Shown: positions 1-49,298 of the stretch, piece by piece
Layout of the letters: the number at the start of each line of letters is the position of its first letter
Numbering within the stretch: the stretch's first letter is position 1
Notes under the pieces: generated by a model
Told to the model about the DNA's origin: nothing
The model's input: only the letters and a program-made list of their open reading frames with translations
Database searches by the model: none
Position numbers and translations under genes: made by a program
Sequence record: MZ501053
DNA length: 49,298 nt
Direction: 5' to 3' (one strand)
From: Escherichia phage BrunoManser

Positions 1-540
1 ATGTTAAACAGCGAGGACGAATCTATGAAACAGGAAAAAGCGCCCGTCGTTCAGGGTGGCAACTTTAAAGAGCTATACCGGAAAGAGTTCGGAACCGTGT
101 TAGGCAAAACGCGACAGACCACGCCGAAGCAGTTGTTTGATCTGGCGGTTAAGTATTTCGAATGGGCGGAAGACAACGCAATCAAAGCGGCTGAGACTGC
201 CAGTTTTCAGGGCGATGTAGAAGAGTCGTTAGTGCATAAGCCGCGAGTGTTTACCGTTACCGGGTTTAAGCTTTTCTGCAGCCTGAGCGACGGCACTATC
301 GCGCGATACCGATCCGAACCGGACTATGCCGAAGTTATGGAATTCGTCGATTCCGTTATCAATGAACAGAAATTCCAGCTTGCGGCAAACGGCATCATTA
401 ACGCTTCGTTTATCGGCAAGGACTTAGGCATCGACAAGCCAGCGTCGATTAACATCGACAACACGTCGAGCGCGGCGGCTGTTGCCACCACAGAAGACGC
501 GATGAAGGACGCGGTAAACAGCGTTCTTGATATGCTCTAA
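1..540 (+). CDS. putative terminase small subunit
   Basis: 179-aa ORF directly upstream of the large terminase gene; positional call, no diagnostic motif. ORF starts at window base 1, so its RBS/upstream region is not visible. Confidence 0.4.
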   Translation: MLNSEDESMKQEKAPVVQGGNFKELYRKEFGTVLGKTRQTTPKQLFDLAVKYFEWAEDNAIKAAETASFQGDVEESLVHKPRVFTVTGFKLFCSLSDGTIARYRSEPDYAEVMEFVDSVINEQKFQLAANGIINASFIGKDLGIDKPASINIDNTSSAAAVATTEDAMKDAVNSVLDML

Positions 541-581
541 CAGTTAACCGGGCGGCTAGTCCGCCCTATAGGATCACGATA

Positions 582-2153
582 ATGTTAATTTGGGAAGAAC
601 TGGACGCAACACAAAAGCTTGCGATCAAGAAAATGTCGGAAGCCAGCTTCGAAAAGATGATTCGGATCTGGTTCCAGTTGATACAGGCACAGAAATTTTT
701 ACCTAACTGGCATCACCTTTACTTGTGCCACGAAGTCGAAGAGATTATCGCCGGGCGACGCGGTAACACGATCTTTAACGTGACTCCGGGTTCGGGGAAA
801 ACGGAAGTCTTTTCGATCCACTTGCCAGTTTATGCAATGCTGAAGCTGAAGAAGGTCAGAAACTTGAACGTGTCATTCGCCGACAGCCTTGTAAAGCGTA
901 ACAGTAAGCGCGTCCGCGAAATCATTTCTTCGCCGGAATTCCAAGAGCTATGGCCTTGCGCGTTCGGCACGTCGAAAGATGAAGAAATGCAGGTGCTAAA
1001 CAATGCGGGAAAGGTCTGGTTTGAGCTTATTTCAGCGGCGGCGGGCGGTCGCATTACTGGTTCGCGTGGCGGCTATATGGTTCCGGGCTTTTCAGGTATG
1101 GTAATGCTGGATGATATCGACAAGCCGGACGATATGTTTTCGAAGGTCAAACGAGAGCGTACACATACGCTTTTAAAGAACACAATCCGAAGCCGACGAA
1201 TGCACAACGAAACTCCGATTATCGCCATACAACAGCGCTTACACGCGCAGGATTCTACGTGGTTCATGATGAACGGCGGCATGGGGATAGACTTCGATCA
1301 GATTTCAATCCCGGCGCTAGTAACTGAGGAATACGGGAAATCACTTCCTGAATGGTTGCAACCGCACTTCGAAAAGGATGTGCTTTCGTCTGAATACGTG
1401 CTAATCGACGGAGTGAAGCATTATAGCTTTTGGCCTGAGAAAGAAACCGTTCACGACTTAATGGCGCTACGCGAGGCTGACCAATACACCTTTGATTCAC
1501 AGTATCAGCAGCGCCCGATCGCGCTAGGTGGTGCAGTGTTTAATTCCGAATGGTGGACGTACTACGGCAACAGTTTAGAAGCCGACGAACCAGATCCGGG
1601 TAAATTCGACTACCGCTTCATTACCGCCGATACCGCGCAGAAAACAGGCGAGCTAAACGACTACACTGTCTTCTGTTTGTGGGGTAAGAAAAACGATAAG
1701 GTGTATTTCATCGACGGCGTTCGCGGCAAGTGGAAAGCTCCGGAAATGGAAACGCAGTTTAAAGCGTTCGTTAACGCGGCGTGGAGGCATAATAAATCAA
1801 TGGGGGTACTGAGAAAGATTTACGTCGAAGATAAGGCAAGCGGTACGGGCTTGATCCAGAACTTAGAGAAGAAAACGCCTGTTGCTATCACGCCGTTGCA
1901 GCGTAACAAAGATAAAGTTACTCGCGCGATGGATGCGCAGCCAGTAATCAAAGCTGGGCGTGTGGTGCTACCGGAAGAACACCCTATGCTGTCCGAAATA
2001 ATCGCCGAGCATAGCGCGTTCACATACGACGATACGCACCCGCACGACGATATTGTCGATAACTTCATGGACGCGGCGAACATCGAACTTCTGACAATCG
2101 ACGATCCTGTCGAGCGAATGAAGCGTTTAGCCGGAATGGTAAAGCGTAAATAA
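582..2153 (+). CDS. terminase large subunit
   Basis: 523 aa; N-terminal P-loop-like VTPGSGKTE, acidic MLDDIDKPDD Walker-B-like segment, C-terminal nuclease-like region; precedes the portal gene. Confidence 0.8.
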   Translation: MLIWEELDATQKLAIKKMSEASFEKMIRIWFQLIQAQKFLPNWHHLYLCHEVEEIIAGRRGNTIFNVTPGSGKTEVFSIHLPVYAMLKLKKVRNLNVSFADSLVKRNSKRVREIISSPEFQELWPCAFGTSKDEEMQVLNNAGKVWFELISAAAGGRITGSRGGYMVPGFSGMVMLDDIDKPDDMFSKVKRERTHTLLKNTIRSRRMHNETPIIAIQQRLHAQDSTWFMMNGGMGIDFDQISIPALVTEEYGKSLPEWLQPHFEKDVLSSEYVLIDGVKHYSFWPEKETVHDLMALREADQYTFDSQYQQRPIALGGAVFNSEWWTYYGNSLEADEPDPGKFDYRFITADTAQKTGELNDYTVFCLWGKKNDKVYFIDGVRGKWKAPEMETQFKAFVNAAWRHNKSMGVLRKIYVEDKASGTGLIQNLEKKTPVAITPLQRNKDKVTRAMDAQPVIKAGRVVLPEEHPMLSEIIAEHSAFTYDDTHPHDDIVDNFMDAANIELLTIDDPVERMKRLAGMVKRK

Positions 2154-2166
2154 AGCGGGTATAATT

Positions 2167-2193
2167 AAGGCTGGAATTTTCCAGCCTTTTTTA
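2167..2193 (+). terminator. intrinsic terminator after terminase large subunit
   Basis: GGCTGGAATTTTCCAGCC hairpin followed by TTTTTT. Confidence 0.6.
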
Positions 2194-2209
2194 TTGGAGG
2201 AAAGACAGA

Positions 2210-3526
2210 ATGAAAATTGTAAAGCACGATGGGTATAACGAGATTTTCAACAACGGAGGCGACAACGCGCCGAAGCCGTTTTACGTCACCGGGGAGCAGT
2301 CTTACGGGTTGGGGTGGATGTACGAAAACAACGGGCTAGCGCGACGCATTATCGACGTTGTTCCAGAAGAAATGGTATCGCCCGGCTTTAAAGTATCAGG
2401 CGTGAAGGATGAAGCGGCGTTCCGGTCAGTGTGGGATGATCTGGAAATCGAAGGGCTAATCGTTGACGCGTTAGCGTGGCGTCGTCTGTATGGCGGTTCC
2501 GGTATCGTGGCGATTATCAACGACGGGCGCAAGCTTACTTCGCCAGCGAAAGAAGGAGGCGTACTGGAAGGGATCAGGGTTTACGATCGCGATCAGATTG
2601 CTATCGCGAAGAAGGAAACAAACGCGCGGAACGTCCGTTACGGCGAACCTGTCCTTTACGAAATTAGTCCGGGCGATGGTCTTACGCCGTATCAGGTTCA
2701 CTACACGCGAATCAAGATCCTAGACGGTGAACGACTCCCGCCACAACAGCGCAAGCGTAATAACGGATGGGGAGCACCATTCCTTAATAAGTCACTGATT
2801 GAAGCGATTTACGATTACGAATATTGCGAAGAACTAGCAACGCAACTTCTACGTCGTAAGCAACAGGCAGTATGGAAGGTAAAAGGGCTGGCGGAAATGT
2901 GCGACGACGACGACGCAGCTTACGCGGCGCGTTTGCGATTGGCACAGGTGGATGATAATTCCGGCGTAGGTAAGGCGATCGGCATTGACGCGAACGACGA
3001 AGAATACGAAGTGTTGAATTCTGACGTTAACGGCGTTTCTGAATTCCTGCAAAATAAGTTCGATCGTATTGTGTCGCTGTCCGGCATTCATGAAATCATC
3101 TTGAAAAACAAGAACGTCGGCGGAGTTAGTGCAAGCCAGAACACGGCGCTAGAAACGTTTTACAAGCTGATTGACCGACAGCGCGAAGAACATTACCGCC
3201 CGATCTTAGAATTCCTTTTGCCGTTCGTAATCCACGAAACGGAATGGTCTGTCGAGTTCGAGCCGCTTTCCATGCCTTCAGAGAAGGAAGCGTCCGAGAC
3301 TACGAAGAATCACGTTGAGTCTATCCGTGGCGCACTGGAAGATCAGATGATTGATTTAGAAGAAGCCCGCGACACGTTGCAATCTATCGCGCCGATGTTT
3401 AAGCTTAAAGACCTGAATCACGCGGAACTGAAGAAGCGCACCGAAGAGCAACAGAAAGTTGAAAAGGAACCGGGAGTCGGCGAGGTAATCAACGAGAACG
3501 AGGAAAACGGAAACGATGAAGATTAA
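2210..3526 (+). CDS. portal protein
   Basis: 438 aa, directly after terminase, strong RBS (GGAGGAAAG), acidic C-terminal tail; size and position typical of siphovirus portal. Confidence 0.6.
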   Translation: MKIVKHDGYNEIFNNGGDNAPKPFYVTGEQSYGLGWMYENNGLARRIIDVVPEEMVSPGFKVSGVKDEAAFRSVWDDLEIEGLIVDALAWRRLYGGSGIVAIINDGRKLTSPAKEGGVLEGIRVYDRDQIAIAKKETNARNVRYGEPVLYEISPGDGLTPYQVHYTRIKILDGERLPPQQRKRNNGWGAPFLNKSLIEAIYDYEYCEELATQLLRRKQQAVWKVKGLAEMCDDDDAAYAARLRLAQVDDNSGVGKAIGIDANDEEYEVLNSDVNGVSEFLQNKFDRIVSLSGIHEIILKNKNVGGVSASQNTALETFYKLIDRQREEHYRPILEFLLPFVIHETEWSVEFEPLSMPSEKEASETTKNHVESIRGALEDQMIDLEEARDTLQSIAPMFKLKDLNHAELKKRTEEQQKVEKEPGVGEVINENEENGNDED

Positions 3527-14345: not shown

Positions 14346-14359
14346 CACGATCTGACAAT

Positions 14360-14385
14360 AGCCCGCCTTGCGCGGGCTTTTTTAT
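14360..14385 (+). terminator. intrinsic terminator
   Basis: AGCCCGC-CTTG-CGCGGGCT followed by TTTTTT. Confidence 0.65.
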
Positions 14386-14396
14386 GGCTGTAGAAT
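14368..14396 (+). promoter_or_regulatory. sigma70-like promoter (TTGCGC-N17-TGTAGAAT) overlapping terminator
   Basis: Same architecture as the 10515 and 16510 promoters. Confidence 0.45.
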
Positions 14397-14426
14397 GGTT
14401 GCACATTCACAAGCGGAGTAAATAAA

Positions 14427-16497: not shown

Positions 16498-16501
16498 AAT
16501 T

Positions 16502-16527
16502 AGCCCGCCTTGCGCGGGTTTTTTTTC
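16502..16527 (+). terminator. intrinsic terminator
   Basis: AGCCCGC-CTTG-CGCGGG followed by T8; near-identical to the 14360 hairpin. Confidence 0.65.
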
Positions 16528-16538
16528 GCCTGTATAAT
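16510..16538 (+). promoter_or_regulatory. sigma70-like promoter (TTGCGC-N17-TGTATAAT) overlapping terminator
   Basis: Extended -10 TGTATAAT 17 nt after TTGCGC inside terminator stem; upstream of J-like gene. Confidence 0.5.
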
Positions 16539-16574
16539 GACTTCACCGATAAATAGCACAAAAGGTTAAACATC

Positions 16575-19500
16575 ATGATTAAAAAAGTGATAACCGGATC
16601 GAAAGGTGGTGGCGGAAAGCCTCATACACCTGTCGAAATGGAAGATAACTTGATTTCAATCAACAAAATACGCGTGTTGCTGGCAGTGTCAGACGGCGAA
16701 GTCGATCCAGACTTTGACATGAAAATGTTGTTGCTTAACGACGTTCCAGTTATGAACGACGACGGCACATACAACTACGAAGGCATTACGGCGGAATTCC
16801 GTCCCGGTACGCAAACGCAAGATTACATACAGGGATTCACCGACAGCGCAAGCGAAGTAACGATGAATCGCGTTATCGATCGCGATACCCCGTACAGCAT
16901 CAACGTTACGAACAAATCGCTTTCGGCTATCCGTATCAAAATGTATATGCCGCGTGGCGTGAAGGTGGAAAGCAACGGCGACAAGAACGGCGTTCGCGTC
17001 GAATACAAAGTCGAATTAGCTGTCGATGGTGCGGCGTTTACCGAATACTTCACCGACGTAATCGACGGTAAAACAATGTCGGGCTATGACCGCAGCCGCC
17101 GAATCAACCTTCCGGCGTTCAACAGTCAAGTAATCGTGAGAGTGTCGCGCGTTACTCCTGATTCCGACGATTCTAACTTGATCGACGAAATGCAGTTGAA
17201 AAGCTATGCGGAAGTAATCGACGCTAAATTCCGTTACCCGCTGACTGGTCTGTTATTCGTGGAATTCGATTCGAAGATGTTCCCGACCCAGATCCCGAAT
17301 ATTTCGCTTCGTAAAAAGTGGAAGGTGATTAACGTCCCGTCGAACTATAACCCGATTACCCGCGACTATAACGGAAGCTGGGACGGCACGTTCAAAAAGG
17401 CGTGGAGTAATAACCCGGCATGGGTTCTTTACGATATCATCACGAACCAACGTTACGGGTTAGATCAGCGTGAGTTAGGGATTAATGTCGATAAGTGGGC
17501 GTTATACGAAGCCGGGCAATATTGCGATCAGATGGTTCCAGACGGAAAAGGCGGAACCGAACCGCGTTACCTTTGTGATGTGGTTATTCAGTCGCAGATT
17601 GAAGCGTTTAAACTGGTTCGCGATATCTGTTCAATCTTCCGTGGTATGTCGTTTTGGAATGGCGAAAGTTTATCTGTCGTGATCGATAAGCCGCGCGACC
17701 CGTCTTACATTTTCACCAACGAAAACGTAGTCGGCGGTAACTTCTCTTACTCGTTCGCGAGCGAAAAGAGCATGTACACGACTTGCAACGTGCAGTTTGA
17801 TGATCATGAAAACTTATATCAACAGGACGTTGAACCTGTATTCGATACTGACGCGGCGCGACGCTTCGGCAATAACCCGACAAGCATTACAGCGATCGGA
17901 TGTACGCGACGCAGCGAGGCTAACAGGCGCGGACGCTGGATTCTGCGAACGAACCTTCGCAGCACGACGGTTAACTTTGCTACCGGGCTGGAAGGTATGA
18001 TCCCGCAAATCGGCGACGTCGTGGCGATTGCAGATAATTTCTGGTCAAGCAATCTTACGTTAAACCTTTCCGGGCGAGTCATGGAAGTATCAGGATTGCA
18101 GATTTTTACGGCGTTTCGTGTTGACGCTCGCGCAGGTGATTTTATTGTCGTAAATAAGCCGGATGGGAAGCCCGTCAAGCGCACAATTTCTTCGGTGTCA
18201 CCAGACGGCAAGACAATAGAAATAAACGTAGGATTCGGCTTTGACGTCGCACCAAGCACTATCTTTGCTATCGACCGAACCGACGTTGCTTTGCAACAGT
18301 ACGTTGTAACCGATATCAAGAAAGGCGACGGCGACGAAGAGTTCGTATTCAGTATCACGGCGGTTGAGTATGACCCGAACAAATACGACGCAATCGACTA
18401 CGGCGTAAACGTTGACGACAGGCCGACAAGTATCGTAGATCCTGACAAGTTGCCAGCGCCGCAAAACGTAGCTGTCGAATCGTTTTCGCGTATCGTGCAG
18501 GGCTTGAGCGTCGAAACGATGGTCATTAGCTGGGAGAAGGTCGATTATGCGGCATTCTATGAGGTTCAATGGAGAAAGAATAACGGTAACTGGATTAACG
18601 TTCCGCGCACCCAAACGAACGAAACATTCGTCGAAGGGATTTACGCGGGCGAATACTCCGTCCGAGTTCGCGCTATTTCATCTTCGGAAAACGCTTCCGT
18701 ATGGTCTGAGGTGGTAACGGTCGGATTAACTGGCAAGGTAGGCGAACCGGGCGCACCGATTAACTTCACTGCGTCCGACGACGTTGTTTTCGGTATCCGG
18801 TTAAAATGGGGTATGCCTGAAGACTCCGGCGACACGGCTTACATTGAAGTGCAGCAATCGCCAAACAACAGCGTAGAAAATGCATCGTTGCTAACGTTAG
18901 TCCCGTATCCGCAACATGAGTATTTCCATACTCCGCTTGAGGCCGGGAAGATGATTTTCTATAGAATTCGCGCCATCGACAAAATCGGCAACGTGTCTCC
19001 TTGGACTGACTTAATACCCGGAATGGCGTCTACCGACGTGGAAAGTATCATCGGTGAAATTAAGGTTGATATCGAAAATTCAGAGGGATATCAATGGCTG
19101 AAGGAAAACGCAACGGACGCAATAGCGAGAATCCAGAACACGGCAGAATCGGCGATAGAGAATGCGTTAGCCAATGATAAGGACATAAGAATCCAGCGAG
19201 TGAAGAACGGCAAATTCACGGCGCAGATTAAAGAGTCGTTACAGCTTATCGCCAACGAAACCGAAGCGCGTGTGACGCAAGTTTCACAGATGGAAGCGGA
19301 CTTCGACGGCAAGATTAACGCTCAAAATACTGAGCTTCGACAGGTTATCGCAACGGAAACGGAAGCGCTATCCGAAGAGATCGAAGAACTGAAAGCCTCA
19401 ATCGGTGACGATATTCAGGCGCAGTTAACGCAGGTTCAACAGGCGATCGCCAACGAAACGGAAGCGAGAACCACGGCGGACACGGCGTTAAGCGCAAGAA

Positions 19501-21289: not shown

Positions 21290-21444
21290 TCTAAAACCCT
21301 CCATTCGTTTGTTTATCGGCATTATACACGTTTGCGATCGTGAGTGTTGGCAAAAAGTGCGATCCATAAAAATGACGCTGTAATCCTATTACATGTAATT
21401 CGTGTAACTTTTGTCTATCATTTTCATGATTACAGAATCCGCAC

Positions 21445-21535
21445 AAAATTTGAGCAACTATGGAGCGCACTGATATACGCTAACTCCTTATAATATATAG
21501 ATAATAATAATAATCTTAAATTGGTTTTTTATATG
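21445..21535 (+). repeat. AT-rich direct repeat, copy A
   Basis: AAAATTTGAGCAA...CGCTAACT...TATAATATATAGATAATAATAATAAT...TTAAATTGGTTTTTTATAT; about 75% identical by eye to copy B. Confidence 0.55.
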
Positions 21536-21779
21536 TGTAATTATCATGTAATCAATGTAAGCGGTGTAATCGTGTTTTTTGTGATGCGTTCAAATTGATA
21601 GTGATTCTCTATGGAATGATGCGTTATCGATGGGGTGTCTTGATATTTATCTATGGGGCGATTACAAGCTCACATCTTATACATGCAACTTTACGGGATT
21701 CATGGCATTGAATTACATAGAGATTTTGTGTAATCGTATTTTTTCTAAGAAATGATTACGAACAATTACAGCGTAACTG

Positions 21780-21807
21780 TTGACTAAATGTCCCTACTGG
21801 CTATAAT
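21780..21807 (+). promoter_or_regulatory. strong sigma70 promoter (TTGACT-N16-TATAAT) upstream of recombination genes
   Basis: Near-consensus -35 and -10 about 30 bp upstream of ATG at 21838, followed by leader CATCATCAACGAAGGAG. Confidence 0.6.
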
Positions 21808-27026: not shown

Positions 27027-27473
27027 TTAGCTATTTGTGCTTTGCGTCGTTTCGTCTTTTCGAACAACGCGCATTAACTTGCGATTCTTGCAACGCTTTT
27101 CTAAGCACTTGCCGTTACTGTCGAACTTCAGGTCGAAGCGAAGCCAGCTTGCGCGATAACCTTTACAGCCTTGCCGACGGTATGCACGATGCGCCGCCTC
27201 CGCGCCTTGCCATGAAATCATACCGCGAACTTTCCATTCGTTCACGTTCTGATTGGTCACTTTCAGCGCCTTAGCTGTTGCGGACGGCGAACCGTAATAT
27301 TCGATCAATGCGTCAAGTCTGGCTCGTAGTCCGGCGCGAACTTCATCCTTCAGGATGTAGAATCCGCATCGCTGGCGGGGCTTGATATCTTTCCCGCGTC
27401 GTGTACCATTATTCCCGTTGATGTGGCGACGGTCGATTTCACCAGTTGATTCTGCAATACGTTTCATCGTCAT
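27027..27473 (-). CDS. putative HTH DNA-binding protein (Cro/YdaS-like)
   Basis: Start set to internal ATG with RBS GAGG (MTMKRIAE...); helix-turn-helix-like segment GSPSATAKALKVTNQNVNEWK; Arg/Lys-rich. Confidence 0.4.
   Translation of the reverse strand: MTMKRIAESTGEIDRRHINGNNGTRRGKDIKPRQRCGFYILKDEVRAGLRARLDALIEYYGSPSATAKALKVTNQNVNEWKVRGMISWQGAEAAHRAYRRQGCKGYRASWLRFDLKFDSNGKCLEKRCKNRKLMRVVRKDETTQSTNS
27028..27042. promoter_or_regulatory. degenerate palindrome + hairpin module upstream of primase (- strand)
   Basis: Minus-strand reading AGCACAAATAGCTAAAAC then AACGCGTA...GTTAGAAT...TACGCGTT hairpin then RBS GGAG. Confidence 0.45.
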
Positions 27474-27566
27474 AGTAAATTCCTCAATAGCATTTTTTGT
27501 TAAAACTGTTTCGTCAATGCGTGTATTATACAATCAACGAAGCATCTACGCAAAGGATTAAAATTC

Positions 27567-29618
27567 GTGAAAATTAGCAACGAAACACGACAGTATTTCA
27601 AAACTCAAAACATCAAAAAGCAGATCGAAATGCTTGGCGAAGAGTACATACGACGCACACAAGAACGTTTCACCGTAGGCGATATCAAGCCGTATGAATA
27701 TCAGGTTGCGGCATACTTCGAGATCGCAAAGCGCTTAGGTAAAGACTACGAACACCCGTTCTACGTGAAAGCGTCGGTATCGGCTGGCAAAACAATCATC
27801 TTCGCGATGGTTGCGAAACAGTGTCAAGCGATGGGTTTAAAAATGATGGTGCTTGCCCGGCAGGGTGAAATCGTCGATCAGGATAGCGAAGAGATCGATA
27901 ATTTCGGCGTTCCTAACTCTATCTTTTCCGCGTCGCTGGGTATCAAGTCTTGTCACTTCCCGATCGTAGTCGGTTCCGAAGGTACTGTCGGTAATGGCCT
28001 GTTTAACGAGCTGTCAGACTTCGTGCCGCACGTAATCGGGATTGATGAATGTCATCAGGTCGATTGGGAGGACGTAGCGAAAGCGATTGAGGGCGACGAA
28101 TCTTACGAACAAATGACGGCGGATAAAGGTCAAATCGTAATGAATGGCGATATTCCGCTGATCGGTAAAGACGGTTTACCTGTCACCGGGACGAAGCGTT
28201 CACAGTACACCGTAATCATTGTCGAAATGATGCGTCGTTGTCGTGAGGTTCACGGTCACGAATTGCGAGTATTCGGAATGACCGGATCGGAATATCGCGG
28301 AGTTGTTCCGATTCTTGTCGAAAATCCGAAGATGGTCGGATTCTGGCGTGAGCAGGTAACGAACATTGATACCAACTACCTGATCGAATTCGGTTCCGTT
28401 GTGCCGACAGTATTCGGATCTACTTCAGGCGTTCACTACAACTACGACAGCTTCACGGCATCCAGCGAAGACGGCGTAGCGGACTTCAGCGACAAAGACT
28501 TGAAAAAGATGGAAGCCGAAGCGCTGGCGAACAAGTCTTTAACCGAACAGATTATGCACATGGTCGCAAAGGAGGCGGAGAAGCGGAACGCGGTTCTAAT
28601 CACTTGCGCCGGGCAAAGGCATTGCAAAGAAGCCGCCGCAGCACTACCGCCCGGAAGCACTTACGCGATCATTACTGACAAGACGAACGCGAAACAGCGA
28701 CAAGCGATATTAGACGACGTTCGCGCCGGGAAGATTAAGTACACGTTTCAGGTTATGGCGCTTACTACTGGCGTAAACGTGCCGAATTGGGATTTTTCTG
28801 TAATCCTCCGCAAGATCGGTTCGCTTACCTTACTGATTCAGCTTTTAGGGCGCGGAATGCGACTACTGAAGAAGTGGCAGATTGAAGACGGAATGGTGAA
28901 GACAGACCATCTTGTTTGGGACTTCGCCGGGACTATGGACGAATTAGGGCAACTTTATTTCGATCCGATACTTGAGCAAGCGCAATACCAACGACGCTTT
29001 GAAACTGGTAAAGATCCGAAGAAATGTGAGCTATGCGGACACGAAAACAGCTTTTACGCCCGCCGTTGCGTTAACGTGATCGATGGAAAACGATGTGAGC
29101 ACTTCTGGACATATCAAACGTGCGAAGACCAGAAGGACGAAAAAACGGGCAAGATCCTTGTAAAAGGTTGTGGGGCGAAAAATGACGTTGTGGCGCGTGT
29201 CTGTCGTTGTTGTGACGTGTCGTTAGTAGATCCTAACCTGAAGTTATCCGGCAAGGCGTACACGAAAAATGATTGGTACGACGTTAAAAAGTTCGAAGTG
29301 CAGTTGACCAAAAACAGTAAAGGAATAATATTCCATTACGTGTTAGATAACGGCGAAGGTGAGTTCAACGCATACGAACGATTCTTCCCTGAATCCGAAG
29401 CGAAAGTGTGCGGTACGTTATGGAAAACTAAAGGCGTGTTGCCGCACGTATCAGATCCGAAGATGCGTAAATACTTCATCGGCATGAAGAACGCAATCAA
29501 GATCATGCAGTACGCGCACCACATCGCCGCCCCGGTTCGCGTGACGCACCGTAAGAACGCGAAGAAAGAAGACTTAATCAGCCGTAAAGATTTCGGCATG
29601 GAGGAAATACCAGAATGA
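27567..29618 (+). CDS. ATP-dependent helicase (SF2, DExH-type)
   Basis: 683 aa; Walker A ASVSAGKTIIF and DECH box (VIGIDECHQ); C-terminal Cys-rich region; likely non-ATG (GTG) start. Confidence 0.7.
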   Translation: MKISNETRQYFKTQNIKKQIEMLGEEYIRRTQERFTVGDIKPYEYQVAAYFEIAKRLGKDYEHPFYVKASVSAGKTIIFAMVAKQCQAMGLKMMVLARQGEIVDQDSEEIDNFGVPNSIFSASLGIKSCHFPIVVGSEGTVGNGLFNELSDFVPHVIGIDECHQVDWEDVAKAIEGDESYEQMTADKGQIVMNGDIPLIGKDGLPVTGTKRSQYTVIIVEMMRRCREVHGHELRVFGMTGSEYRGVVPILVENPKMVGFWREQVTNIDTNYLIEFGSVVPTVFGSTSGVHYNYDSFTASSEDGVADFSDKDLKKMEAEALANKSLTEQIMHMVAKEAEKRNAVLITCAGQRHCKEAAAALPPGSTYAIITDKTNAKQRQAILDDVRAGKIKYTFQVMALTTGVNVPNWDFSVILRKIGSLTLLIQLLGRGMRLLKKWQIEDGMVKTDHLVWDFAGTMDELGQLYFDPILEQAQYQRRFETGKDPKKCELCGHENSFYARRCVNVIDGKRCEHFWTYQTCEDQKDEKTGKILVKGCGAKNDVVARVCRCCDVSLVDPNLKLSGKAYTKNDWYDVKKFEVQLTKNSKGIIFHYVLDNGEGEFNAYERFFPESEAKVCGTLWKTKGVLPHVSDPKMRKYFIGMKNAIKIMQYAHHIAAPVRVTHRKNAKKEDLISRKDFGMEEIPE

Positions 29619-30040
29619 TTACCGACAAAGGCGACTATTTAGAATTCTACGAACGCGATCCAAGCGACACGCGGAAGGAGGTTAATCACCAGATCGAAAG
29701 CACATCGTTCGTTAAGGTTCGGCATCCTGAATTACTGTTCTGGCATAGCGTGAACGAGAACGAAAAAAGCAAGGTTACGGCGATGATAGATCAGCAATCG
29801 GGATTATTGAAAGGCGTTAGCGACTTCGTGTTCCTGATTGGTTTTAATCACCGCTACCCGTTCGGCGCTATCGAATTGAAGCGCGTCAATAAGTCGGGCA
29901 AAGGGAAGGCGTCACCAGTCAGCGACGAACAGAAATCTTTCTTGCGCAAGGTTCGCGAACGTGGAGGATTCGCCGCCGTTGCTTATGGCGTAGAGCAATT
30001 TAAATTAGCTGTCGCGGAAATGCTAAAACAGCACGAATAG
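29615..30040 (+). CDS. VRR-NUC domain nuclease
   Basis: 141 aa; PD-(D/E)XK-like core (GVSDFVFL...GAIELKR) typical of VRR-NUC proteins; overlaps helicase stop. Confidence 0.5.
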   Translation: MITDKGDYLEFYERDPSDTRKEVNHQIESTSFVKVRHPELLFWHSVNENEKSKVTAMIDQQSGLLKGVSDFVFLIGFNHRYPFGAIELKRVNKSGKGKASPVSDEQKSFLRKVRERGGFAAVAYGVEQFKLAVAEMLKQHE

Positions 30041-30043
30041 CTA
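30029..30043. promoter_or_regulatory. degenerate palindrome + hairpin module
   Basis: CAGCACGAATAGCTAAAAC, hairpin GCCGGAATGGAATCCGGTATTATC, leader CATCGAAACAACGGAGG. Confidence 0.45.
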
Positions 30044-30100
30044 AAACAGCCGGAATGGAATCCGGTATTATCTATTCATCGAAACAACGGAGGCGCATAA

Positions 30101-33239: not shown

Positions 33240-33240
33240 A

Positions 33241-33255
33241 TAGCACGAATAGCTA
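33241..33255. promoter_or_regulatory. palindrome TAGCA-N5-AGCTA + hairpin module
   Basis: TAGCACGAATAGCTAAAG, hairpin GGGGTAACGAGTTATAGTTACCCC, leader CATCAAAACAAAGGAG. Confidence 0.55.
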
Positions 33256-33313
33256 AAGACAAACGCGGGGTAACGAGTTATAGTTACCCCATCAAAACAA
33301 AGGAGATAGACAA

Positions 33314-35706: not shown

Positions 35707-37272
35707 TTATAGGAAACATGGATTCACATAAACAACTTCGTCAACTACGCAAACATGGTTCATTCGCTCTAACTCAATCAACAGCGTCTCGATACGTTCG
35801 CCGACCTTCTGTTGTCCGTTGAACGGGGTAATGTTGCGACACTTCGAAATCAGGCTATGGATCTGTACACGACCTTTTGAACGACGCGCCATTCCCGTAA
35901 TCACTTCCGACAGCTTGCGGGATTCGGCTTCGTCACCTGCAAAGCCCGCCGCGTTCGCCGACGACAGATACGTTTTCGACAGTTCGTTGAATATCATGAT
36001 CGCTTCCTGCATTGTGTCTAAATCGATCTCACGATTTGCCCGGTTCGGGTTTTCACCTGTCCAGTTACGGATCGCGTGAAGCACTGAAGCGATACGGATA
36101 ACGTGTTTATCGAACTTGCCTAAATGACCGCGTAACATAGAGTGCGAATAGCGCCCGCCCGCCGCGAAGCTGGATTCCATTTCCTGACGCGCCAAGTTAA
36201 GCGCCCGGTTCGCGTTCCGGTTTAGCGTGAATACGACTTTCTCTTCCTTCATGATATTGTGAATCAAGCGATAATATTTGCTAACTAACGATTGCTCTAC
36301 GGGTTTATATACCGCGTCGCCGTTTTCGTCGCAAAGTGTACGAGTACCTAACAACGGCTCTTCACGAACGAGCAAGAAACGTTCCGATACCCCGATCCCG
36401 CGTTGCCCGGCATCCATGATCCCACGTATCGTTTCATCCTGAGCAATAACGCAGATCGCGCCAACGGGACGAATTGACAGGTTGTTATCCTGATTGGAAC
36501 GCGCTACTTCCATGTGGTTCATATCCCACGCTTTAAGGATTAGTTCGCTGTTCGCCTTCTTATCAGTTCCGCCATACGTCAAGCCAAGAAGCGTATTTAT
36601 CGCCGTTGCTTCGTCCGATATTACTGAGAAGTTACCTTGCGCCGCAGCGACCTTCGCCAAGCCTTCAGGAGTCGGATCGGATACGGCAAACACGACGTTA
36701 GCCATTTTCTTGATCTTCTCTTCTAACTTCTCTTTTTCCTCGTAAAGCGCTACGGCTGAATTGCCTTTTACGTCATTCTTGATCTCGCGTTCGACGTTGC
36801 GAAGTTGCCCCATCAGTCGAGAACGTTCGGCTTTACGCGCTTCGTTAATGCGGTCAATTTCGGATCGCATCGGGTTAATCGCGGCGGAGTTAATCGCGGA
36901 TTTACCTGTTGACGGCGGTTGACTGATTACCATGTAAAGCGCGGTCGGTTGTTCTTCGCCGTGATACTCAACCCAAAAGCGCCCCAGCATAGCGGCGGAC
37001 ATACAGCCGATAAAATGCGCGTATGCAGATGAAACAGGGAATTGGACGGATTCAGCCTTTGCTTTCGCGTATTCGTAAACGAGGTTGTCGCCAGCAATAG
37101 AGATAAGCGGGAATTGATCGTTTCCGCTGTTAATCTGTTCCGGCTGGCTCCAGAACGATCGAGAATCAGGATAGCCATTTTCACGAATAGCTAACGCGAC
37201 AGGGTTAATCCCGTTCGTATTGGCGATTTCAATGATTTGACTAACTGAAAGTTTAGGTTTACCGAAAAGCAT
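35707..37272 (-). CDS. putative P-loop NTPase (DUF3987-like, replication/host-takeover associated)
   Basis: 521 aa; deviant Walker A (ISQPPSTGKSAI) and acidic hhhhDE-like segment (ICVIAQDE); largest gene of leftward operon; family recalled from memory only. Confidence 0.45.
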   Translation of the reverse strand: MLFGKPKLSVSQIIEIANTNGINPVALAIRENGYPDSRSFWSQPEQINSGNDQFPLISIAGDNLVYEYAKAKAESVQFPVSSAYAHFIGCMSAAMLGRFWVEYHGEEQPTALYMVISQPPSTGKSAINSAAINPMRSEIDRINEARKAERSRLMGQLRNVEREIKNDVKGNSAVALYEEKEKLEEKIKKMANVVFAVSDPTPEGLAKVAAAQGNFSVISDEATAINTLLGLTYGGTDKKANSELILKAWDMNHMEVARSNQDNNLSIRPVGAICVIAQDETIRGIMDAGQRGIGVSERFLLVREEPLLGTRTLCDENGDAVYKPVEQSLVSKYYRLIHNIMKEEKVVFTLNRNANRALNLARQEMESSFAAGGRYSHSMLRGHLGKFDKHVIRIASVLHAIRNWTGENPNRANREIDLDTMQEAIMIFNELSKTYLSSANAAGFAGDEAESRKLSEVITGMARRSKGRVQIHSLISKCRNITPFNGQQKVGERIETLLIELERMNHVCVVDEVVYVNPCFL

Positions 37273-40005: not shown

Positions 40006-40145
40006 TTCTCCATCTGTTCTAAAAGTTTTTCTATCACCTCGATTCGGTTGTAGTGGTGATTAAACTCCCGGACGTCTACTTCGTACCCCATCGCTTCGAT
40101 CGCGTTAAGGTGAATGCCGATTGCGCTCCTCAGTCTGCGAATCAT
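40002..40145 (-). CDS. hypothetical small protein (47 aa)
   Basis: Manual ORF bridging 40142-40462 and 39817-40005 with ATGA overlaps at both ends. Confidence 0.3.
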   Translation of the reverse strand: MIRRLRSAIGIHLNAIEAMGYEVDVREFNHHYNRIEVIEKLLEQMEK

Positions 40146-40432
40146 AAGTCCTTCCACAAGTGACGGTTAGCGCCGATGTAATCCAGCATTTCGCGAACGT
40201 GCTTTTCATCCTTCAGTGTGCCGGGTAACTCTCCTTTCAGCTCTTGCGGCAACCACACGTTACCGTTATAGGTGAAAGAACCGTTCTCATTTGCCTGATA
40301 GGTGAACATCCATTCGCAATCGTTATTCAGATCCCACACTGCCAGAAAGTCACCTTCGCCAACGTTCTCGATCGTAACGTCTAATCCGCGCTTGCGTGCA
40401 AAGTTGATTGTCGTTTTGCTGATAGTTGTCAT
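40142..40432 (-). CDS. hypothetical protein (first gene of leftward operon)
   Basis: Start set to internal ATG (MTTISKTT...) after RBS AAGGAG and palindrome/hairpin module. Confidence 0.45.
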   Translation of the reverse strand: MTTISKTTINFARKRGLDVTIENVGEGDFLAVWDLNNDCEWMFTYQANENGSFTYNGNVWLPQELKGELPGTLKDEKHVREMLDYIGANRHLWKDL

Positions 40433-40489
40433 TGCTGTATCTCCTTCGTTTCGATGAAGCAACTATACCCGAACCACCCCGCCGATGTG

Positions 40490-40504
40490 TTGCAAAAAGT
40501 GCTA
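40490..40504. promoter_or_regulatory. palindrome module (leftward orientation), first gene of leftward operon
   Basis: Minus-strand TAGCACTTTTTGCAA + CGGGTATAGTTGCTTCATCGAAACGAAGGAG before ATG at 40432. Confidence 0.5.
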
Positions 40505-40585
40505 TTCCTGATCCGATACGATTATTCCTCGCTTTTGGAATAACTGGAATAATGAGTGATTACTCATGATTGCAAATGACAAGTT

Positions 40586-40629
40586 ATGATTATTGCTTGA
40601 TTGTTCGCAATCGTGATGATTATTGCTTG
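40586..40629 (+). repeat. direct repeat ATGATTATTGCTTG x2
   Basis: Two exact 14-bp copies (40586-40599 and 40616-40629), 30 bp apart, in the leader of the leftward operon. Confidence 0.5.
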
Positions 40630-40685
40630 TGAAGCATTAAATTGGAGAGAGGTTATAGAGTGAAACGGTCTTCGCCACCAACTTT

Positions 40686-40700
40686 TAGCAATTCGTGCTA
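40686..40700. promoter_or_regulatory. palindrome TAGCA-ATTCG-TGCTA in divergent control region
   Basis: Perfect copy ACTTTTAGCAATTCGTGCTA with no adjacent long ORF. Confidence 0.45.
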
Positions 40701-40767
40701 CGTGTCTAAATTACGCTTGTAATCTTTGTCTAAAATTTGCTAGATTTGTCACTTAGACAAAATGATG

Positions 40768-40860
40768 AAAATTTGAGCAATCCTAAGAGCTGGCCGATTT
40801 AGCGCTAACTATATGATATATATAATAATAATAAGTTTTAAATTAGCTTTTATATAGTAG
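40768..40860 (+). repeat. AT-rich direct repeat, copy B
   Basis: AAAATTTGAGCAA...GCGCTAACT...ATATATATAATAATAATAAG...TTTTAAATTAGCTTTTATAT; same orientation as copy A, 19.3 kb away. Confidence 0.55.
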
Positions 40861-41053
40861 AAATACTGTTGTATATAGGGCGTGTCACTAATGTATAAGG
40901 TGTAAGGGTGAGATTCGGTATATTGAGGATTTCTGGTTATATATACAGTACATTAGGAGGCAGACCCATAAATATCTCTATAGGTGCTTACATCTAATAC
41001 ATCTTATACAGGGGCGATTACGTAGTTGTGACGCGCGTCCTTGCTGGATTGTG

Positions 41054-41082
41054 TTGTCTAAGGTAAAAATTTAAGATATTAT
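41054..41082 (+). promoter_or_regulatory. candidate sigma70 early promoter (TTGTCT-N17-TATTAT)
   Basis: In the divergent control region ~65 bp upstream of ATG at 41146. Confidence 0.4.
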
Positions 41083-41145
41083 TACGCGCTTATACAACGT
41101 GTAATCTTTGTCTAAGCTTGTCTAAAACAATCAGGAGAATCAACC

Positions 41146-41736
41146 ATGACTAAACTAGCATCATCAAATGAACCGAACATCGCCGCAATGCTTCGCCACA
41201 TCGTCACGCTGAAGATTCAGGCTGGCGAACGGGAATTCAGCTTCACCGAATTGCAAATGCTGATTGAAGCCGCCCGGTTGCAGTATGAGGAACACGGCGT
41301 CACCCGCACTGAAGATGAATTAGACGACGACGCGCGAGTCTTCCGGGATCAGTACAACGGCCTGTTGCGCCTGAAGATGAAATCGCCGTACATCGCGCCG
41401 ACTATCAAGCGCCACGTTGCGAAAGCTGGCTTTGATTGTGCGATCTCACTTAGCCGGGATGAAGACGACGAAATCTTAGTGTCTGTCACGCTGTCGGACG
41501 AACCGATCGAGAAGCCAGCCCGCACACGTAAGGCGAAAGCGGCTCCGGTTGTCCAGGGTGATTCTGTTCAATCTGGTGAGCATATCGACACGGTTCGATT
41601 TAATGCGCTGGCGTTATGGGTTCCAGACTTCACGAAGTACGACGACGAAGAGTTATCGACGGCAAGGCAATTGCTTGAAGAGTTTCGGAATCACGTCGAA
41701 GCCCTGAGAGGTAAAAGCGAAGAAATCGCAGAATAG
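41146..41736 (+). CDS. hypothetical acidic protein (first gene of rightward early operon)
   Basis: 196 aa; RBS CAGGAG; sigma70-like promoter ~70 bp upstream. Confidence 0.5.
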   Translation: MTKLASSNEPNIAAMLRHIVTLKIQAGEREFSFTELQMLIEAARLQYEEHGVTRTEDELDDDARVFRDQYNGLLRLKMKSPYIAPTIKRHVAKAGFDCAISLSRDEDDEILVSVTLSDEPIEKPARTRKAKAAPVVQGDSVQSGEHIDTVRFNALALWVPDFTKYDDEELSTARQLLEEFRNHVEALRGKSEEIAE

Positions 41737-46322: not shown

Positions 46323-46888
46323 TTATTCTTAACGGCTGTCCGGGCATTGGCAAAGATACGATCGGTTGTGTTATCGCTGATATGAACCAGTTAAAAGGCG
46401 TTCGCACGTTGAGCTTTAAAGCGCCGATGTTTGAAATTGCCCGCGCCATTTTGGGCGACGCGAATTACGATTACTTCTTATTCTTGTATAATGACCGACT
46501 TCATAAAGAGAAGCCAGATTCTGTCCTGAATGGTAAAAGCCCGCGCGAGTTCATGATCTGGATTAGCGAAGCAATCATTAAACCTGAGTTCGGAAATGAT
46601 TATTTCGGGCGGCGCATGGTGGAGGCGATTAAGGCAAGCGATACGCCAGCCGTTATTACTGACGGCGGATTCACTGAAGAGACAATCGCACTAATCGAAT
46701 CTGGTATTCAGGTTCATGTTTGCCGACTTCACAGGGGAGGATTCACGTTCGAAGGTGATTCCAGAAGCTATCTTCATTTACCTGTCGGCTGGCATGGCGT
46801 TAACGGGTACACCGAAGAAGACTTCACGTTGCGCGACGGCGACCCGGATTACACCGCAAGCGTCATCACAGGCCGCTATTTGAAATAG
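46310..46888 (+). CDS. P-loop kinase (dNMP kinase / polynucleotide kinase-like)
   Basis: N-terminal Walker A ILNGCPGIGKDT resembles T4 gp1-type dNMP kinase P-loop (GxxxSGKDT); overlaps stop of phosphatase gene. Confidence 0.5.
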   Translation: MQKVIILNGCPGIGKDTIGCVIADMNQLKGVRTLSFKAPMFEIARAILGDANYDYFLFLYNDRLHKEKPDSVLNGKSPREFMIWISEAIIKPEFGNDYFGRRMVEAIKASDTPAVITDGGFTEETIALIESGIQVHVCRLHRGGFTFEGDSRSYLHLPVGWHGVNGYTEEDFTLRDGDPDYTASVITGRYLK

Positions 46889-46900
46889 CACGAATTGCTA
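46886..46900. promoter_or_regulatory. palindrome TAGCA-CGAAT-TGCTA + hairpin module
   Basis: Starts at TAG stop of kinase gene; GGGGTAAGCTGTTATAGTTACCCC then CATCAACAACC. Confidence 0.6.
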
Positions 46901-46961
46901 AAACCGGATCGGGGTAAGCTGTTATAGTTACCCCATCAACAACCAATCATGGAATTACGCT

Positions 46962-48516: not shown

Positions 48517-48679
48517 TCTTCGTCCCTGAACGGTGATAACATTATTTCCGTAGACAAAAGAGGCGCATAGAGCGCAACGCGCATCGCGATAGATGCACTT
48601 TCGTAGTAAGTTCGGTTGGATTGTGGAACCAACGCCGTAGACCCGTACACGGCATCAATTCTAAAAGGAACCTACCTAA

Positions 48680-48841
48680 ATGAAACAAGATATCAAAATC
48701 GAAATCAAAGTCACCCGTAACGGCGAAGTAACCCGCTACAAAAAATCATTAAAACCGGGCGAAGCGGTTATCGGTCGAATCGGTGGCGTTATGCTGAAGG
48801 CGCAAGAAGATGAAGCGATTCACAGTAAATCTACTAATTAA
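48680..48841 (+). CDS. hypothetical small protein (53 aa)
   Basis: Manual ORF MKQDIKIEIKVTRNGEVTRY... after AAGGAA RBS. Confidence 0.3.
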   Translation: MKQDIKIEIKVTRNGEVTRYKKSLKPGEAVIGRIGGVMLKAQEDEAIHSKSTN

Positions 48842-49228: not shown

Positions 49229-49245
49229 AAAATCAGGTTGAAAAC

Positions 49246-49270
49246 CAACCCGCTTCGGCGGGTTTTTTTG
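49246..49270 (+). terminator. intrinsic terminator at end of rightward early operon
   Basis: AACCCGC-TTCG-GCGGGTT followed by TTTTTT. Confidence 0.7.
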
Positions 49271-49289
49271 TGCCTGTAATATGCTAAAA

Positions 49290-49298
49290 TAGCACGAA
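49290..49298. promoter_or_regulatory. truncated palindrome half (TAGCACGAA) at window end
   Basis: Window ends inside the motif; the rest would lie upstream of base 1 if the molecule is circularly permuted. Confidence 0.4.

Follow-up and report, generated by a model that had tools for sequence, protein, structure and literature searches.

What does the long non-coding gap do at which two blocks of small genes diverge in Escherichia phage BrunoManser (sequence record MZ501053)? The original prediction, made from the letters of the 49,298-nucleotide stretch analyzed here (the window), described this gap as a control region dense in repeats, with candidate early promoters and possibly a replication origin. 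Our comparison with related phages favors a conserved genome-end hub with at least two jobs, the start of packaging and divergent transcription, and we hold this to be the probable explanation. The earlier reading missed the best-documented role of the region in its family: according to the sequence alignments, the genome ends of phages T1 and TLS, and hence the packaging site (pac), map inside it.

The gap as a genome-end region with a candidate packaging zone

Judged by its sequence, the region corresponds in this phage to the intergenic region conserved at the genome end of T1-like phages, and as such it is ordinary and family-conserved. The equivalent divergent gaps measure 700 bp in T1 (162 + 538 bp across the record ends), 783 bp in TLS (195 + 588), 683 bp in EF3-1, 704 bp in IME347 and 655 bp in the Klebsiella Webervirus Solomon. 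In the gap alignments with T1, EF3-1, IME347, Solomon and BHUENT9, the blocks follow one another in the same order. In the left part, module 1 (GCAAAAAGTGCTATTCC) is followed by ATTATTCC...TGGAATAnCTGGAATA (bearing TGGAATA twice), by TGATT repeats and, in Tunavirinae only, by module 2; in the right part, a palindrome adjoining ACAAAAT is followed by an AT-only core, by TATATATACAGTA and by a less conserved rightward promoter region. DNA comparison by BLAST across genera recognises only the left ~200 bp of the gap. T1 (NC_005833, junction 48675-48836 plus 1-538) and TLS (NC_009540) bear the gap at the same site between small-gene blocks and at a similar size, with the same succession of module 1, repeat cluster, TGATT array, AT core and rightward promoter. 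The identity of T1 to the window is limited to the blocks, and the repeats around its AT core are TGTTAATC instead of TTGTCTAA; TLS has two TAGACCGATTGGTCTA palindromes, a different palindromic pair, in place of the GGAATA quartet, and lacks module 2.

The features of the left part, together with the gap itself, are as follows.

40433-41145, no strand: the whole non-coding divergent gap, 713 bp, delimited by the list of open reading frames (ORFs), the SRT8 gp58/gp57 annotation and the homologous gaps
40485-40505, minus strand: module 1, a copy of the T1-family 21-nt repeat (ATAGCACTTTTTGCAACACAT) and putative promoter P_L1, assigned by geometry and conservation
40503-40551, no strand: GGAATA cluster, four sites directly upstream of module 1 (TATTCC at 40503 and 40523, GGAATA at 40537 and 40546)
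40552-40567, no strand: inverted repeat ATGAGT-GATT-ACTCAT, conserved in SRT8, JL8 and IME347 only
40557-40629, plus strand: phased TGATT array (40557, 40567, 40587, 40598, 40617), candidate zone of pac recognition or cleavage
40681-40701, minus strand: module 2, the second 21-nt repeat (GTAGCACGAATTGCTAAAAGT), with a TATAAC −10-like hexamer (40652-40657) at +44

The window, by its sequence, is a near-complete genome of a T1-like phage (Drexlerviridae, Tunavirinae, Sertoctavirus): its length is about that of one genome (the records of Escherichia phage SRT8 and Citrobacter phage IME-JL8, or JL8, span 49.6 and 49.8 kb), the window is about 90% identical to these two phages, and the 1-kb stretch around the gap 90%. 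The gap had been delimited as 40463-41145 (683 bp), which would place the start of the leftward gene at TTG 40462. This has to be corrected: the gene starts at ATG 40432, preceded by a GGAGA Shine-Dalgarno (SD) sequence, and with 291 nt has the same length as SRT8 gp58; thus, the gap extends from 40433 to 41145. Small genes inside it were rejected, since all its ORFs are ≤29 aa long, lack an SD sequence and hold positions that are not conserved among the 8 genomes compared. A search of the whole window against Rfam (gathering thresholds) and an ARAGORN tRNA scan gave no matches.

The location of the genome ends in relatives bears directly on packaging. The T1 reference record starts inside the homologous gap, with a terminal repeat_region annotated at 1..2800; it ends with ...GATGTGATT and starts with GTTGC..., so that the cut lies directly 3′ of a TGATT. 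In the alignment, this cut falls between 40591 and 40592 of the window, inside the first ATGATTATTGCTTG repeat, T1 position 1 corresponding to 40592. The ends of the TLS record lie in this gap too, within its TGATT array, and the record starts with AGATTT, which is the pac assigned after restriction mapping of a submolar pac-HindIII fragment (PMC11447400). In SU57, the read frequency was found to change abruptly in an untranslated region (UTR) flanked by small ORFs, and the authors placed the pac of T1 and other T1-like phages in the region corresponding to this UTR (PMC7718038). The starts of other records fall on five or more distinct points within ~100 bp, equivalent to about 40579-40675 of the window. 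Since T1 position 1 aligns to 40592 and the T1 and TLS records are both cut in the array, the left third of the gap most likely holds pac, and on this alignment about 40503-40680 is the likely zone of pac recognition and cleavage.

The repeats of this zone are clearly non-random. Every repeat that the original prediction had listed was found in the gap, and most are far commoner there than expected by chance. The TGATT array comprises 5 copies on the same strand vs. ~0.4 expected, and the claimed direct repeat ATGATTATTGCTTG lies inside it at 40586 and 40616; the 11-nt core ATGATTATTGC of this repeat has both its genome copies in the gap. Spacings of 10, 20, 11 and 19 bp put the TGATT copies on one helix face. 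Comparable arrays occur in IME347 (spacings 10, 20, 21, 9), EF3-1 (30, 21), T1 (24, 30, 21) and TLS (21, 10, 5, 5). The GGAATAA pair was recovered (40537 and 40546), and a further copy, inverted, lies at 40522. GGAATA is present 4 times in the gap vs. 0.48 expected, with two sites direct and two inverted, the last one being part of module 1, and ATTATTCC...TGGAATAnCTGGAATA is invariant across Tunavirinae and Webervirus, T1 included. The predicted inverted repeat ATGAGTGATTACTCAT occupies 40552-40567, and the iteron-like motifs GTAATC (4 copies vs. 0.82 expected) and GTATA (7 vs. 0.69) are likewise enriched in the gap.

Repeated short motifs also make up known pac sites, such as the TGATCA/G hexamers of P1 and the pacL-pacC-pacR of SPP1. 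The zone described here resembles them in that a motif of 5-6 nt recurs several times on one helix face, on both sides of the cut, with a second repeat cluster nearby, and in that it is non-coding or partly so and ~150-250 bp long. It differs in its motif, the candidate TGATT, and in its position ~8 kb upstream of the terminase genes, not in or beside the small terminase gene. We infer pac activity from these features: the terminase would recognise the concatemer and first cut it in the left third, at about 40503-40680, and headful packaging would then run towards 41146, that is, rightward, which we take to be the direction in T1 as well.

The 21-nucleotide modules and divergent transcription

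Both leftward modules of the original prediction are present, at 40485-40505 and 40681-40701. They match the 21-nt repeat aaATAGCACnnnTTGnTAAAA described for TLS, T1, Rtp and Rogue1 (Ramsey, Kropinski, Misra et al. 2024, PMC11447400) with 2 mismatches (module 1) and 1 mismatch (module 2), and both are oriented with transcription. Module 1 was found in every Drexlerviridae gap examined. Both modules occur in 11 of 11 Tunavirinae gaps, 191-205 bp apart, and module 2 is not present in Solomon and BHUENT9.

In module 1, a TATAGT −10-like hexamer (40462-40467) lies at +38, the GGAGA SD sequence (40440-40444) at +60 and the ATG (40432) at +73, the start codon thus being 73 nt away vs. ~76 nt in PMC11447400. 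The window contains 32 matches to the 21-nt repeat. Among the 20 that precede an SD sequence and a start codon, a −10-like hexamer (TATAGT, TATTAT or TATAAT) stands exactly at +38 in 14, and the start codon falls at +72 to +80 in 18. The geometry of module 1 is that of about 20 other gene-proximal modules, and the fit is exact. From this geometry and its conservation we infer promoter activity. Module 2 differs from the family repeat in preceding no gene: neither an SD sequence nor a start codon or an ORF was found downstream of it, and any transcript would therefore cross the TGATT and GGAATA repeats.

Most other copies of the repeat (19 of 25) are accompanied by a strong hairpin of variable sequence, which encloses the −10-like hexamer or is located just 5′ of it; the mean minimum free energy of these modules is −11.1 kcal/mol vs. 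−6.5 for the background (p = 1.5e-6). The hairpin has 7-14 bp at about +20 to +50, its arms compensate each other between copies, and a T-rich run often follows. Examples are these.

33240-33300, plus strand: hairpin-bearing module
46885-46945, plus strand: hairpin-bearing module
35181-35120, minus strand: hairpin-bearing module
27043-26985, minus strand: hairpin-bearing module

The hairpin is absent from both modules of the divergent gap (40505, 40701) and from the module of the cor gene in a second gap (21363), and this absence fits modules that begin an operon instead of punctuating one. The 21-nt repeat cassette may combine a terminator or processing site with a promoter. The T1 record annotates many rho-independent terminators between gene cassettes, some of which may be module hairpins. 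A candidate binder of the 21-nt repeat or of the short repeats is encoded at 27027-27533 (minus strand), between the primase and SNF2-type helicase genes: a Cro-like helix-turn-helix protein, the match being weak and short of the Pfam cutoff.

The stretch between the modules raises the question of whether module 2 drives a functional non-coding RNA or a structured leader (~190 nt, 40506-40650, minus strand). No other part of the gap is as well conserved between genera as this segment, module 2 combines a −10-like hexamer with the lack of an SD sequence or ORF, and the window sequence alone folds better than its shuffles (z = −3.4). The good single-sequence fold is explained by its palindromes. 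The alignment of 9 genomes folds to only −9.75 kcal/mol, with a penalising covariation term of +1.46, compensatory changes in 2 of 26 predicted pairs, and paired columns that are almost all invariant. A structured RNA between the modules was rejected on these grounds. Without covariation support, the conservation is at the level of DNA motifs (TGATT, GGAATA), as for protein-binding sites; given also that there is no Rfam match and that no terminator was found, we regard an RNA product of module 2 as very unlikely.

The right part of the gap carries the rightward promoter match and another set of repeats, of which the TTGTCTAA copies are grouped around the two putative transcription starts.

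40703-40761, no strand: TGTCTAA cluster I (40703 plus, 40727 plus, 40753 minus)
40931-40950, no strand: LexA-box-like palindrome TTCTGGTTATATATACAGTA, CTG-N10-CAG, 17/20 to the consensus, the sole match in the genome (0.00 expected)
41054-41082, plus strand: candidate rightward promoter, TTGTCT-17-TATTAT, sigma-70-like (9/12), its −35 being itself a TTGTCTAA copy
41100-41125, plus strand: TGTAATCTTTGTCTAAGCTTGTCTAA, a repetition of 40718-40742, with TTGTCTAA copies at 41108 and 41118

Four copies of TTGTCTAA had been claimed, and four were indeed found on the plus strand, together with one on the minus strand; these are all 5 exact copies in the 49-kb window, vs. 1.35 expected genome-wide, and all lie in the gap. 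The shorter TGTCTAA has 6 of its 7 genome copies in the gap (p ~1e-9), and 5 of the 6 are kept in SRT8 and JL8. Cluster I forms a 9-bp inverted repeat TTTGTCTAA/TTAGACAAA with an inner palindrome TTTGTC-N5-GACAAA, the inverted pair of the original prediction, and is kept in SRT8 and JL8; T1 has TGTTAATC at the homologous place. The palindromes of cluster I sit just upstream of module 2. TGTAATCTTTGTCTAAGCTTGTCTAA is located between the promoter match and the AGGAG SD sequence (41133-41137) of the gene starting with ATG 41146; its TTGTCTAA copy at 41118 is not kept in SRT8 or JL8. Since the TTGTCTAA copies overlap the rightward −35, sit in its leader and form palindromes near module 2, they are best read as candidate operators, that is, putative binding sites for a phage regulator. 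A link between the TTGTCTA-type repeat and the adjacent DUF7174 protein was considered and rejected: EF3-1 shares the repeat of the window, and its protein is nearer to that of T1.

At 41054-41082, the predicted promoter match is present and kept in SRT8 and JL8, and SA12KD has an annotated promoter at the corresponding site. The match reaches only 9/12, and matches of this quality are about as numerous in the region as in shuffled sequence.

The palindrome at 40931-40950 agrees with the E. coli LexA (SOS) box TACTGTATATATATACAGTA at 17 of 20 positions, CTG-N10-CAG being intact. It differs in that the left CTG is limited to Sertoctavirus and in that no promoter overlaps it, the promoter scan having given no match over 40931-40950. 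SRT8 and JL8 keep CTGT-N8-ACAG, and T1, EF3-1 and IME347 have ATG instead of CTG. The right half, TATATATACAGTA, is invariant in 4 of 5 aligned Tunavirinae lineages, IME347 being one base off. Because of the ATG in T1, EF3-1 and IME347, the conserved TATATATACAGTA element is probably something other than a LexA site.

As for the flanking genes, the leftward operon from 40432 consists of small genes and also encodes a DUF3987 helicase-type protein (35707-37272, minus strand, E = 3e-44); the product of its first gene (40142-40432, minus strand) has no Pfam match. The rightward operon starts with a gene for a DUF7174-like product (41146-41736) and comprises many small genes, followed, by the SRT8/T1 gene order, by the terminase, head and tail genes. 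In the mechanism that we propose, host RNA polymerase would transcribe both small-gene blocks divergently and presumably early. Leftward transcription would start from the two tandem 21-nt repeat copies, module 1 acting as the full promoter, leader and ribosome-binding-site cassette of the first leftward gene, and module 2, which has no gene, directing transcription across the pac-like repeats. Rightward transcription would start from the weak −35/−10 match embedded in, and then trailed by, TTGTCTAA repeats.

AT-rich cores and the question of an origin

The center of the gap contains an AT core that has a twin elsewhere in the genome, in the gap between a cor-like lipoprotein gene and recE (gap A; the divergent gap is then gap B).

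40718-40873, no strand: segment paralogous to 21394-21550 of the cor-recE gap (copy B), 69% over 164 columns
40806-40856, no strand: AT core, 93% A+T over 40 bp, the least stable 50-bp duplex of the genome
21292-21837, no strand: gap A, a second non-coding hub, between the cor-like lipoprotein gene (minus) and recE (plus), 546 bp

The original prediction had noted copy B as a copy of a shared AT-rich repeat, and the alignment of the two segments bears this out (E = 5e-14). The AT core of gap B has a stability of −46.2 kcal/mol vs. a genome mean of −70.4 ± 4.6; the second least stable segment is the paralog at 21489-21539 (−47.8), and the third-ranked one follows at −53.9. Both cores are thus >4.9 standard deviations from the mean. 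The same two gaps rank first and second in instability in T1 (233-283 and 30015-30065) and in TLS (216-266 and 28825-28875), and the A and B cores are paralogous to each other in all three genomes.

Gap A is conserved in T1 as well as in TLS. Both gaps of the window contain GGGGCGATTAC and CATCTTATACA, in opposite order, and the AT core of gap A lies at 21489-21539. The promoter match TTGACT-16-TATAAT at 21780-21807 (sigma-70 11/12, conserved in T1) is the only clearly above-chance promoter match seen. In TLS, the −35 (TTGACT) of this recE promoter (29100-29118) stands only ~10 nt before the annotated recE start, compared to ~55 nt upstream in T1 and the window; the TLS recE start is probably annotated too far upstream. 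Gap A of TLS lies between co-directional genes, so that the AT core is not a by-product of divergent promoters. A conserved −35/−10 pair within the AT cores was rejected, because the alignment of six cores shares a TATAAT-like run only and no −35. The promoter-scan matches are leftward in the two AT cores of the window and rightward in the gap-B core of T1, and the gap-A core of T1 has none.

The repeats around the cores differ between lineages. In the window, gap B holds 5 of 5 genome copies of TTGTCTAA and gap A 11 of 30 copies of TGTAAT; in T1, gap B holds 5 of 6 copies of TGTTAATC and gap A 4 of 6 copies of TGTAACA. No clear exact 8-mer repeat family was found in TLS and IME347. This layout, with short repeats flanking the least stable DNA of the genome, looks like an origin and is consistent with one.

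Origins built of iterons and AT-rich DNA, some of them paired, include lambda ori, SPP1 oriL/oriR, P4 ori/crr and SaPI ori, in which iterons flank an AT-rich segment. The gaps resemble these origins in that the DNA which melts most easily is flanked on either side by clustered short repeats specific to the lineage and, as with the paired elements of SPP1 and P4, in having two paralogous copies per genome. They differ in that the repeats are short (7-8 nt) and irregularly spaced, and in that DnaA and IHF sites and an adjacent initiator gene are missing. On this basis we put forward, tentatively and expecting that it may well fail, that the AT core with its TTGTCTAA and TGTATA repeats and the paralog 21394-21550 with its TGTAAT repeats could be the replication origins of T1-like phages, either as twin origins or as an origin plus a cis-element, kept from T1 to TLS, with lineage-specific iterons co-evolving with a phage initiator.

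Competing explanations and further observations

How far, then, can the center of the gap (about 40700-41050) be taken for a replication origin? According to this explanation, the TTGTCTAA and TGTATA repeats to the left and right of the AT core would be bound by a phage protein, which would melt the core and load the phage helicase and primase, the paralog in the cor-recE gap being a second origin or a cis-replication element; such a role would add to the pac and promoter roles rather than replace them. The explanation accounts for the two least stable duplexes of the genome recurring as the top two at the same places in T1 and TLS, for their paralogy in all three lineages, for a TLS core that divergent promoters do not explain, and for repeat clusters which differ by lineage as iterons do. 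Moreover, the leftward operon encodes the DUF3987 helicase, SPP1 oriL/oriR, P4 ori/crr and SaPI ori offer precedents, and the position is vacant, since two papers state that no replication origin was found in T1-like phages (PMC11447400, PMC7718038). The usual marks of an origin were, however, not found. Both gaps lack TTWTNCACA, TTATCCACA (≤1 mismatch) and WATCAANNNNTTR, and GATC is depleted (1 copy vs. 3.9 expected), so that oriC-like features were rejected for want of DnaA boxes, an IHF consensus and GATC clustering. No initiator or other replication gene adjoins the gap, the helicase gene being 3.2 kb to the left and the primase gene 13 kb away. GC skew follows gene strand only and was rejected as an origin indicator. 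IME347 and TLS are without clear exact 8-mer families, and the repeat motif does not track the divergence of the adjacent DUF7174 protein. Meltable AT-rich DNA with repeats is equally typical of strong, regulated phage promoters. An origin at the center is thus possible, and we consider it doubtful. The two halves of the original prediction fared differently: the control region gained comparative evidence from module geometry and conservation, whereas the origin draws on architecture.

A hub for packaging and divergent transcription remains our preferred explanation, and it has to be set against a region devoted to transcription control, with divergent early promoters, operators for a phage regulator, possibly LexA, and no part in packaging or replication, where the T1 and TLS records would end by convention or through imprecise mapping. 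Such a region would suit the geometry and conservation of the modules, the LexA-like box, the way in which TTGTCTAA sites overlap the rightward promoter match at its −35 and in its leader, and palindromes of the kind usual for dimeric repressors (TTTGTC-N5-GACAAA is one). It also agrees with reports that many authors orient their genomes after T1 and that, in these phages, fixed ends are often not detected by PhageTerm (PMC13164509). What it leaves out is the 2.8-kb terminal repeat annotated in T1 from position 1, the TLS pac, which was mapped by restriction fragments before a motif was chosen (PMC11447400), and the read-frequency step of SU57 in the homologous UTR (PMC7718038). Nor would a promoter need the 190-bp spacer upstream of P_L1 with its TGATT array and GGAATA quartet, which is conserved across genera nonetheless. 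We therefore consider control alone unlikely.

Several points weigh against the hub itself. The final pac assignment in TLS leaned on a 6-nt likeness to the P22 pac (PMC11447400), and, because many genomes were simply oriented after T1 (PMC13164509), the evidence from record starts is independent only in part. The literature yielded neither physical-end nor transcript data for this phage or its genus, nor a transcript map for any Drexlerviridae phage, and the publications on IME-JL8 and SRT8 contain no analysis of the gap region. The function of the 21-nt repeat is an open question according to its authors (PMC11447400). Its TTGCTA stands 22 bp, not 17 bp, from the −10-like hexamer and is thus not a standard −35; spanning about −50 to −30, the repeat looks by its position like an activator-type or UP-type element. 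On the rightward side, the region has 4 sigma-70 matches of 9/12 vs. 3.2 ± 1.7 in shuffled sequence. Finally, the hub leaves unexplained ~250 bp of the center (AT core, TGTATA repeats, LexA-like box) and the paralogous core upstream of recE, a place at which one would not expect a pac.

T1-like phages often contaminate laboratories and are candidates for phage therapy, and their cis-acting sites are poorly defined, pac being known only approximately. The region itself, as the conserved end and control region of the family, holds little surprise. What the analysis adds is a sharper definition of the phased TGATT array and the GGAATA quartet as a pac candidate, of two hairpin-less 21-nt modules as candidates for operon-initial promoters, and of the two paralogous AT cores, the least stable DNA of the genome, with their lineage-specific repeats, as candidate origins. 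The coordinates may guide genome engineering, e.g., the choice of where a synthetic or rebooted genome can be opened, as well as packaging and replication assays.

Other observations concern the rest of the window. A scan of IMG/VR with TGGAATANCTGGAATA gave 120 loci, of which one was T1-like, and the pattern was rejected as too unspecific. Three terminators with a GC hairpin and a T-run (14359-14404, 16501-16546 and 49245-49290) are followed directly by CTGTAGAAT, CTGTATAAT or CTGTAATAT, which resemble an extended −10 (TGn-TAnAAT); within the structural gene block, the elements at 14359, 16501 and 49245 thus seem to form another type of punctuation by terminator and promoter. Three 49-nt repeats with an exact 99-nt spacing and 67-71% identity lie inside a coding region at 19220-19466 and probably reflect a repeated unit of 33 residues in a tail protein.

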